A DNA stretch of 64,000 nt. Origin: Escherichia coli. GTDB taxonomy: Bacteria; Pseudomonadota; Gammaproteobacteria; Enterobacterales; Enterobacteriaceae. The notes beneath the pieces were generated by a model. It had not been told where the DNA came from. It saw only the letters and a list, made by a program, of their open reading frames with translations, and did not search any database. The translations under genes and the position numbers were made by a program. The DNA lies in assembly GCF_003334315.1 (NCBI RefSeq), contig NZ_QOWR01000005.1, one strand, 5' to 3'. This document shows, piece by piece, positions 59,733 through 61,690 of this stretch (position 1 is the stretch's first letter; the number at the start of each line of letters is the position of its first letter).

Positions 59733-60785
59733 ATGAAAAAGACCCGTACAGCCAATTTGCACCATCTTTATCATGAACCCTTACCCGAAAACCTGAAGCT
59801 CACGCCGAAGGTCGAAGTGGATAATGTTCATCAACGACAGACAACGGATGTCTATGAACATGCTTTAACGATTACCGCCTGGCAGCAGATTTACGATCAG
59901 CTGCATCCGGGCAAGTTTCATGGTGAATTTACGGAAATTCTACTCGATGATATTCAGGTTTTTCGTGAATACACCGGTCTGGCGCTGCGTCAGTCGTGCC
60001 TGGTCTGGCCGAACTCGTTCTGGTTTGGCATTCCGGCGACGCGCGGTGAGCAGGGATTTATCGGTTCGCAATGTCTGGGAAGCGCGGAAATCGCCACCCG
60101 CCCTGGTGGCACTGAATTTGAACTGAGCACGCCGGATGATTACACGATCCTGGGCGTGGTGCTTTCTGAAGATGTCATCACCCGGCAGGCTAACTTTTTG
60201 CATAACCCGGATCGGGTATTACATATGTTGCGTAACCAGTCGGCGCTGGAAGTGAAAGAGCAGCATAAAGCCGCGCTGTGGGGCTTTGTCCAACAGGCGC
60301 TGGCGACGTTTTGCGAGAATCCGGAAAATCTCCATCAGCCTGCAGTGCGAAAAGTGCTGGGGGATAATTTGCTAATGGCGATGGGGGCCATGCTGGAAGA
60401 AGCGCAACCAATGGTGACGGCGGAAAGCATCAGTCATCAGAGTTACCGTCGATTGCTTTCCCGCGCCCGTGAATATGTGCTGGAAAACATGTCCGAACCG
60501 GTGACGGTGCTGGATTTGTGTAATCAACTGCATGTCAGCCGCCGCACGCTACAAAACGCGTTTCACGCTATTTTAGGCATTGGCCCGAACGCGTGGCTGA
60601 AACGCATTCGCCTGAACGCCGTACGCCGCGAACTGATAAGTCCGTGGTCGCAAAGTATGACGGTAAAAGACGCCGCCATGCAGTGGGGATTCTGGCATCT
60701 GGGGCAATTTGCCACGGATTACCAGCAGCTGTTTGCCGAGAAGCCGTCGTTGACGTTGCATCAGCGGATGCGGGAATGGGGGTGA
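59733..60785 (+). CDS. eutR: AraC-family transcriptional activator of the eut operon
   Basis: 350-codon [55 protein letters not shown]...; C-terminal AraC HTH. Confidence 0.95.
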
Positions 60786-60790
60786 GGGAG

Positions 60791-61690
60791 TTACACCCAA
60801 TCCCTGACCTTAATAAACTCACTTAACGCCGCTTCTGGGCTGCCATCTTTTGGCTGATAATCATACTCCCAGCGTACCAGTGGCGGCATTGACATCAGGA
60901 TCGACTCGGTGCGCCCGCCAGTTTGCAGGCCAAACAGAGTGCCGCGATCCCAGACCAGATTGAACTCGACATAACGACCGCGACGGTAGAGCTGAAAATT
61001 GCGCTCGCGCTCGCCGTAGGCCATCGCTTTACGTCGCTCTACAATTGGTAAATAAGCGTCGGTGTAGCCTTTGCCTACCGCCTGCATAAAGGGAAAACAG
61101 TGGTCGAAATCTGGCGTGTTCAGATCATCAAAGAACAGCCCGCCAATACCGCGCTGTTCGTTGCGATGTTTGAGGTAGAAGTAATCGTCGCACCACTTTT
61201 TGTAACGGGGATAAACGTCTTCACCAAATGGCAGGCACAGGTCACGGGCGGTGCGGTGCCAGTGAATGGCGTCTTCTTCAAAACCATAGAAAGGGGTTAA
61301 ATCGAAGCCGCCGCCAAACCACCAGACGGGCTCTGCACCCGGTTTTTCGGCAATAAAAAAACGCACATTCGCGTGGCTGGTGGGAACATACGGGTTATGC
61401 GGATGCACTACCAGTGAAACGCCCATCGCCTCGAAACTGCGCCCGGCAAGTTCCGGGCGATGAGCGGTGGCGGAAGCTGGCATCGCCTCGCCGTGGACGT
61501 GAGAAAAGTTGACGCCTGCCTGTTCGAAAACACCACCATTACGCAACACCCGACTACGCCCGCCGCCGCCAGCTTCGCGCTGCCAACTATCTTCGACAAA
61601 TTCTGCGCCATCGACGGCGGTCAGCTGCTGACAAATCGTATCCTGAAGGTTGAGCAGAAACTGTTTAACCTGGTGTGCGTCGGGTTTCAT
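60791..61690 (-). CDS. hemF: oxygen-dependent coproporphyrinogen-III oxidase
   Basis: 299-codon [52 protein letters not shown]... Confidence 0.97.

Follow-up and report, generated by a model that had tools for sequence, protein, structure and literature searches.

The convergent eutR/hemF junction of Escherichia coli: stop codons five base pairs apart, no terminator at the junction, and probable overlap of transcript 3' ends

Introduction

Convergently transcribed operons of Escherichia coli frequently share their ends: 276 of the 370 convergent operons evaluated by Conway et al. (2014; mBio; PMC4161252), or 75%, overlap at their 3' ends, with a mean overlap of 286 nt. Here, we analyze the meeting point of eutR and hemF in a 64,000-nucleotide stretch of E. 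coli DNA (NCBI RefSeq assembly GCF_003334315.1, contig NZ_QOWR01000005.1; hereafter the window), where the stop codon of the last gene of the eut operon faces that of the amiA-hemF unit across a spacer of 5 bp. In our assessment this is probably an ordinary tail-to-tail junction, a by-product of genome compaction without a dedicated regulatory function. It resembles the overlapping convergent 3' ends of Conway et al. (2014) in that an efficient terminator is likewise missing and the complementary ends should extend over a few hundred nucleotides. However, most of those cases possess an intergenic region with a leaky terminator, whereas the 5-bp spacer between eutR and hemF holds nothing.

Other well-described arrangements resemble the locus in part. 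With regard to the Rho-suppressed antisense transcription reported by Adams et al. (2021; eLife; PMC7815308), where 51.5% of Rho termination regions lie antisense to genes, the hemF side of the junction is the same, and the locus itself is among the 1,078 listed regions; the eut side, in contrast, is not covered by that study, as the eut operon is uninduced in lysogeny broth (LB). Convergent excludons (Sesto et al., 2013; ExcludonFinder 2025, PMC12288877) have in common with eutR/hemF their convergent orientation, a very short spacing, the presence of double-stranded RNA (dsRNA) and, probably, overlapping transcription. Yet, their trait is opposing or mutually exclusive expression, and hemF-eutR is missing from the 165 convergent excludons seen in at least 50% of the MG1655 transcriptomes (ExcludonFinder 2025; PMC12288877). 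Repetitive extragenic palindromic (REP) sequences and the bacterial interspersed mosaic elements (BIMEs) are found between many convergent genes, in MG1655 in 207 of 704 convergent pairs (~30%; 2026 preprint, bioRxiv 10.64898/2026.03.23.713779). The orthologous eutR-hemF spacers of sister genera are alike in this respect, whereas the Escherichia junction is without a REP and consequently without the terminator and decay-block function proposed for these elements. Finally, collision-driven bidirectional terminators (Ju et al., 2019, according to bioRxiv 10.1101/2022.10.23.513370) likewise involve a convergent pair in which head-on encounters of polymerases are to be expected; as portrayed in that preprint, they consist of an intergenic hairpin and generate uniform Rho-independent 3' ends, whereas eutR/hemF has no significant hairpin and is Rho-sensitive on its hemF side.

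Much of what bears on the junction is already known: the gap is annotated, the spacer has been used for engineering, the Rho region is published, and overlaps of convergent 3' ends are well documented. Our additions are modest: we compare the 5-bp Escherichia spacer with its REP-filled counterparts in sister genera, and we place three independent datasets on one and the same junction.

Results

The genes that meet at the junction, and the spacer between them, are arranged in the window as follows:

59733-60785, plus strand: eutR coding sequence, 350 aa, stop codon TGA at 60783-60785; AraC-type activator and last gene of the eut operon (open reading frame (ORF) list, NF007522, RefSeq)
60786-60790: spacer GGGAG, 5 bp, between both stop codons (window sequence)
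60791-61690, minus strand: hemF coding sequence, 299 aa, stop codon TAA (tta on the plus strand) at 60791-60793; oxygen-dependent coproporphyrinogen III oxidase (ORF list, NF003727, RefSeq)
61694-62563, minus strand: amiA coding sequence, 3 bp (61691-61693) upstream of hemF on the same strand and forming with it the amiA-hemF unit (ORF list, NF007652)

Positions 60770-60809 read gcgggaatgg gggTGAGGGAGTTAcaccca atccctgacc, which across the junction corresponds to ...cgg atg cgg gaa tgg ggg TGA GGGAG TTA cac cca atc cct.... The EutR protein matches the NCBIfam equivalog NF007522 with 790 bits (cutoff 319) over residues 1-350 of 350, and HemF matches the equivalog NF003727 with 471 bits (cutoff 297), its residues 6-298 being aligned to positions 2-294 of the 294-position model; AmiA matches the equivalog NF007652, and EutK, too, matches an equivalog of its own. 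As the matches reach the ends of the models, the annotated stop codons of eutR and hemF are therefore the true ends of these genes. Mis-annotated gene ends are ruled out by these matches to the last residues together with the C-terminal codons of EutR and HemF, which are conserved across genera. The identical 5-bp gap is recorded by RefSeq for CP53, for a derivative of MG1655 and for MG1655; in the last of these, hemF occupies 2553225-2554124 (+) and eutR 2554130-2555182 (-). A preliminary description of this DNA had stated that the two genes converge with their stop codons 5 bp apart, and the sequence, the ORF list, the equivalogs and RefSeq all bear this out. The arrangement is a fixed and already annotated feature of E. 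coli: among 5,426 complete E. coli genomes, 5,425 contain a match to a 1-kb query spanning the junction (with 99.9% identity to CP53 and 97.7% to MG1655 derivatives), and a junction-centred 49-mer is identical in 2,665 genomes and matches near full length in at least 4,795 of the 5,426.

The same preliminary description had maintained that there is no room for a terminator on either strand, and this holds as well: a 5-bp spacer is too short, and no terminator-like site lies nearby. Terminators can, however, reside within a neighbouring coding sequence, so that a lack of room by itself proves nothing. Using a consensus scan, we found neither strand to carry an intrinsic terminator-like site less than ~230 nt from the junction; across positions 59500-62800 it returned three weak sites, as compared with 4.3 expected from shuffled sequences, none of them near the junction. 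Such weak sites are located inside eutR (60498-60513, plus strand) and inside hemF (61374-61361, minus strand). A looser scan for hairpins followed by a T-tail, covering ~1.1 kb downstream of each stop codon, recovered no canonical terminator and only weak hairpins with at most five T in eight positions, beginning at about +119 nt on the hemF side. The predicted folds at the junction resemble those of shuffled sequences on both strands (z -1.26 and -1.60); among four folded segments, the z-scores lie between -0.6 and -2.1, and the junction itself shows nothing. Rfam yielded no match with an E-value up to 1 on either strand of 59000-63000, and a REP element is absent between the stop codons, the spacer in the window measuring just those 5 bp. 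An intrinsic terminator at the junction, including a bidirectional one, is ruled out by both scans and by the non-significant folds.

A palindromic pattern that we noted at this site is a short repeat spanning both stop codons:

60780-60798, no strand: 5-bp inverted repeat GGGTG/CACCC, without a U-tract and without statistical support (sequence, fold z-scores, repeat finder)

One could envision that this GGGTG...CACCC repeat serves as a non-canonical bidirectional terminator, as a pause or collision site, or as a hairpin that protects 3' ends. Its 5-bp stem is rich in G+C and extends across both stops, one divergent Escherichia lineage carries GGGTA...TACCC and has thereby kept the pairing through changes on both sides, and E. 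coli bidirectional terminators that lack intrinsic features, operating through hairpin pausing and collision, are described in a preprint (bioRxiv 10.1101/2022.10.23.513370). We nevertheless regard such a role as extremely unlikely. The repeat has neither a U-tract nor an A-tract, its folds do not stand out from the shuffles, and the repeat finder reported no inverted repeat at the junction. Another lineage (E1V33) has an unpaired GGGTA/CACCC combination, and both arms are constrained by coding, one by a stop codon and the other by Trp and Val codons. In addition, the published Term-seq data list 3' ends for neither hemF nor eutR, and the read-through of hemF is Rho-sensitive 516 nt further on.

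Supplementary file 2 of Adams et al. (2021; PMC7815308), which is based on DirectRNA-seq with and without bicyclomycin (BCM), lists a Rho termination region at MG1655 position 2,554,640 (+), antisense to eutR, with a Rho score of 4.50 and p = 8.9e-8. Via the MG1655 coordinates, this region maps 516 nt past the hemF stop codon, at about position 60275 (minus strand) of the window. The features of the window that relate to it are:

60275-60790, minus strand: putative hemF read-through RNA, untranslated and antisense to the 3' half of eutR, predicted to end near the published Rho region
60313-60440, minus strand: candidate Rho utilization (rut) site, a C-rich/G-poor stretch located just upstream of the Rho region, its C/G ratio reaching 2.07 in windows of 78 nt

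Our composition scan shows the hemF read-through RNA to be rich in C and poor in G, with a C/G ratio of 1.94 at +0-78 that rises to as much as 2.07 at +350-480. Hence, both hallmarks of a Rho-dependent terminator, a C-rich and G-poor RNA and the published bicyclomycin sensitivity, are found on the hemF side; the BCM data demonstrate Rho termination there, and the composition is consistent with it. The Term-seq 3' ends of Adams et al. (2021; PMC7815308) contain no entry for hemF, eutR or amiA; for hemF and eutR this is as expected, because Rho-dependent ends are unstable. A weak hairpin with a T-rich tail is located at 60274-60260 (minus strand) and adjoins the published Rho region.

The eut operon, which feeds the opposing transcription, is off in the absence of ethanolamine and B12. 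Besides the inducible promoter P1, eutR possesses a weak constitutive internal promoter, P2, and the small RNA MavR binds to the 3' region of eutR's coding sequence and shields it from RNase E (PMC8565329). A transcriptional lacZ reporter placed into the eutR-hemF spacer of E. coli 536 responds to ethanolamine: the fusion, situated by the eutR stop codon, yielded 37 Miller units with ethanolamine and was otherwise unmeasurable (PMC10710832). Once induced, eut transcription hence passes the stop codon of eutR. In addition, dsRNA fragments generated by RNase III and captured with p19 (Huang et al., 2020; PMC7373196) were found in hemF and amiA. When mapped to the window, these fragments fall at 61370-61392 in hemF and at 62123-62145 in amiA, ~590 and ~1,340 nt past the eutR stop codon on the plus strand. 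Read-through from eutR is a plausible source of this dsRNA, because no sigma-70-like promoter was found in between: within 59500-62800 the single such site is at 62714 (plus strand), and there is none on the plus strand from 59500 to 62713. The corresponding features are:

60786-61392, plus strand: putative eut/eutR read-through RNA, antisense to hemF, which would reach at least to the dsRNA site, provided that the antisense RNA starts from eut
61370-61392, reads from both strands: p19 dsRNA site in hemF (sequences from the supplement of Huang et al., 2020, mapped to the window)
61486-61638, plus strand: candidate rut site, the strongest C-rich/G-poor stretch downstream of eutR, with a C/G ratio of up to 2.43

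The RNA past the eutR stop codon has a C/G ratio of 1.64 at +0-78 and of up to 2.43 at +700-850, so that the intervals +0-100 and +700-850 are candidate rut regions for eut read-through. Downstream of eutR, the scans revealed no terminator-like site on the plus strand. Neither for hemF nor for amiA do Adams et al. (2021; PMC7815308) list an antisense BCM-sensitive region in LB, where eut is uninduced.

The hemF dsRNA site at 61370-61392 overlaps, and is mostly located just upstream of, the weak T-run hairpin 61374-61361 on the hemF sense strand, which is perhaps a coincidence. Furthermore, the eut operon is uninterrupted in the window (the eutA/eutB boundary is at ~56236), while MG1655 carries the 6.8-kb cryptic prophage CPZ-55 between eutB and eutA; transcript data for the eut side from K-12 may therefore not transfer directly to the strain under study.

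The claim of the preliminary description that the transcripts enter each other's coding sequence fits with the published Rho region antisense to eutR, with the lacZ fusion in the spacer, and with the dsRNA in hemF and amiA. A contrary view would be that there is no real overlap, and that both units mostly end before their own stop codons through intragenic or polar termination. The weak terminator-like sites inside eutR (60498-60513) and hemF (61374-61361), as well as the poor expression of eutR without inducer, could be cited in its favor. We consider it hardly probable at all, since both proteins are made, which calls for full-length mRNAs; moreover, expression is seen from the lacZ fusion behind the stop codon of eutR, read-through downstream of hemF is BCM-sensitive, and the three terminator-like sites remain below the 4.3 given by the shuffle expectation. 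The supplement of the SMRT-Cappable-seq study has no entry for the eutR or hemF genes.

A 5-bp gap is no rarity in this part of the chromosome. We sampled 200 kb of the CP53 RefSeq annotation around the locus; of the 27 convergent pairs that it contains, six overlap or are separated by at most 5 bp:

eutR/hemF: gap of 5 bp
cysM/yfeK: gap of 2 bp
ptsP/ypdC: gap of 2 bp
ypeB/yfeH: gap of -4 bp
yfgJ/xseA: gap of -4 bp
hcaT/csiE: gap of -9 bp

About one-fifth of the nearby convergent junctions is too tight for any terminator, and the notion that the eutR/hemF gap represents a statistical rarity is ruled out by these equally tight neighbouring pairs.

To place the spacer into an evolutionary context, we inspected 63 loci with EutR relatives, one genome per species. 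The order eutR-> <-hemF-amiA accompanies every EutR of at least 90% identity and is absent at more distant eut loci; it is found in Escherichia, Citrobacter, the Klebsiella oxytoca group, Salmonella enterica subsp. arizonae, Pseudocitrobacter, a Pluralibacter metagenome-assembled genome (MAG) and Intestinirhabdus. The eutR-hemF synteny was remarked upon for EUT1 loci by Axen (2014). The lengths of the spacers are:

Escherichia: 5 bp
Pluralibacter MAG: 8 bp
Intestinirhabdus: 19 bp
Citrobacter, Klebsiella, Pseudocitrobacter and Salmonella (arizonae): 54-150 bp, with palindromes of the REP/BIME type

In our search for REP palindromic units (e.g., ...GCCGGATG...CTTATCCGGCCTAC), the exact motif CTTATCCGGCCTAC was present in the eutR-hemF spacers of Citrobacter and Pseudocitrobacter and not in those of Escherichia. 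We take this motif to be a REP on the basis of known consensus sequences and of its repetition at intergenic 3' ends. In five Escherichia lineages the spacer has a length of 5 bp, while its sequence is GGGAG, ATAAA or GGTAA, and the stop codons of eutR and hemF each switch between TGA and TAA. This variability of both the spacer sequence and the stop codons argues against a sequence element, and a conserved spacer motif is ruled out. Among these loci, the 5-bp length is specific to Escherichia, and the spacer is evolutionarily labile, with gain or loss of REPs and insertions, while the synteny persists.

Individual loci depart from these lengths. Escherichia whittamii Sa2BVA5 (locus record L006, 4060-5843) carries a 1.78-kb insertion exactly at the eutR/hemF junction with three minus-strand ORFs, two of which overlap and encode 97 aa and 171 aa, while the third encodes 223 aa and matches no family; Pfam indicates a weak GNAT domain in the 171-aa protein, and the 97/171-aa pair resembles a GNAT-toxin/antitoxin module. 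Its eutR gene is two codons longer. In E. coli 23CRST009 (NZ_AP045766.1; L071, 2523-2536), a 9-bp tandem duplication, AGTTACACC, has extended the spacer from 5 to 14 bp; no other E. coli record that we inspected deviates in spacer length. Three loci from Citrobacter/Pseudocitrobacter (L026, L027, L029) have spacers of 425-973 bp with multiple REP motifs (up to five in L027), and these look like expanded REP/BIME arrays. The eutR gene is seemingly disrupted in Escherichia sp. MOD1-EC7003 (L037, 3001-3905), by a deletion of ~145 bp and a premature stop, and in Citrobacter amalonaticus AUH_CA_2023_1 (L039, 3001-3636), by a frameshift or stop after residue 209; in both, hemF and amiA are intact.

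Discussion

The data assembled here lend themselves to a simple view of the eutR/hemF junction. Two unrelated units, the eut operon with the weak internal eutR promoter and amiA-hemF, meet at a site that has no intergenic terminator. A polymerase leaving either gene would enter the opposite coding sequence and there produce an untranslated antisense RNA, onto whose naked C-rich stretches Rho would load, so that termination should follow within a few hundred nucleotides. Polymerases coming from hemF are stopped by Rho ~0.5 kb into eutR, as the published BCM data show; those from the eut side cross into hemF in antisense orientation, as shown by the lacZ fusion, and are most likely terminated by Rho as well. 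With both units active, head-on collisions of polymerases would contribute further. An overlap between the 3' ends of eut and hemF transcripts should result, which within one cell requires activity of both units. A regulatory consequence is probably lacking.

Several points weigh against this interpretation. The position of the Rho region antisense to eutR is coarse, given that the Rho score was built on 800-nt windows. Rho termination on the eut side is something that we infer from composition only, and the antisense RNA that p19 captured in hemF and amiA could originate at an antisense promoter that has escaped recognition instead of representing eutR read-through. Moreover, the kept 5-bp length could reflect selection, although a shortage of mutational input accounts for it just as well.

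In an alternative scenario, eutR and hemF would constitute a functional convergent excludon. Induced eut read-through, antisense to hemF (and amiA), would then lower expression via RNase III or collision, and hemF read-through would damp the weakly expressed eutR mRNA via its 3' 0.5 kb. Such a proposal can draw on the fact that both read-throughs are independently supported, on the dsRNA fragments in hemF and amiA, and on the eutR-hemF synteny shared by Escherichia, Citrobacter, Klebsiella, Salmonella and relatives. It is also in line with the tendency of excludon pairs toward short intergenic distances (PMC12288877) and with the precedent set by MavR at the 3' region of eutR. We consider it unlikely, however. 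Apart from the absence of the pair from the ExcludonFinder list, transcription past eutR is weak even under inducing conditions, with its 37 Miller units; the relatives keep the synteny with REP palindromes of 54-150 bp between the genes, so that a tight abutment is not needed; and about one-fifth of the neighbouring convergent pairs are equally tight. The literature that we searched contains no report of cross-talk between eut and hemF.

A more elaborate version, to which we assign an even lower probability, would view eut and amiA-hemF as a conditional excludon of Escherichia, brought about by the tight junction devoid of terminator and REP. Strong induction of eut in the gut would send antisense RNA and polymerases into hemF and amiA and reduce the oxygen-dependent haem enzyme, whereas hemF read-through would pair with the MavR-protected 3' 0.5 kb of eutR and could thereby determine at what threshold the autoregulatory loop of EutR operates; in relatives, REP spacers would insulate the genes from such coupling. 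If true, an excludon at this locus would link aerobic haem synthesis with the catabolism of ethanolamine and place EutR under a further level of control, but nothing that we found points there, and no evidence for a regulatory role of the eutR/hemF junction emerged from our analysis.

Regarded as an ordinary tail-to-tail junction, the locus is a clean instance of a general rule, according to which many convergent genes of E. coli abut without a terminator and Rho clears the antisense read-through. There is a practical side to this as well. The spacer already serves as an insertion site for eut reporters (PMC10710832), and cassettes placed there will receive transcription from both sides and may alter the 3' ends of hemF or eutR.

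Additional Observations

The REP motif recurs elsewhere in the window. Allowing at most one mismatch, CTTATCCGGCCTAC has six intergenic copies in the window, as compared with 0.02 expected, at the following sites:

3790-3803: REP motif
28801-28814: REP motif
40072-40104: REP motif
53507-53546: REP motif

According to the CP53 gene table, three of these sites lie in the convergent spacers hda/arsC, ypfH/ypfN and ypfG/tkt, and one pair of copies is located within the eut operon, in the eutG-eutH spacer. The RefSeq table of MG1655 lists no repeat features in the eut region.

Elsewhere in the window, ypeA and yfeZ overlap by 14 bp at 63189-63202, and in CP53 the hyfD and hyfC genes are annotated as frameshifted pseudogenes (L067, 15511-17912; window ~15500-17900).

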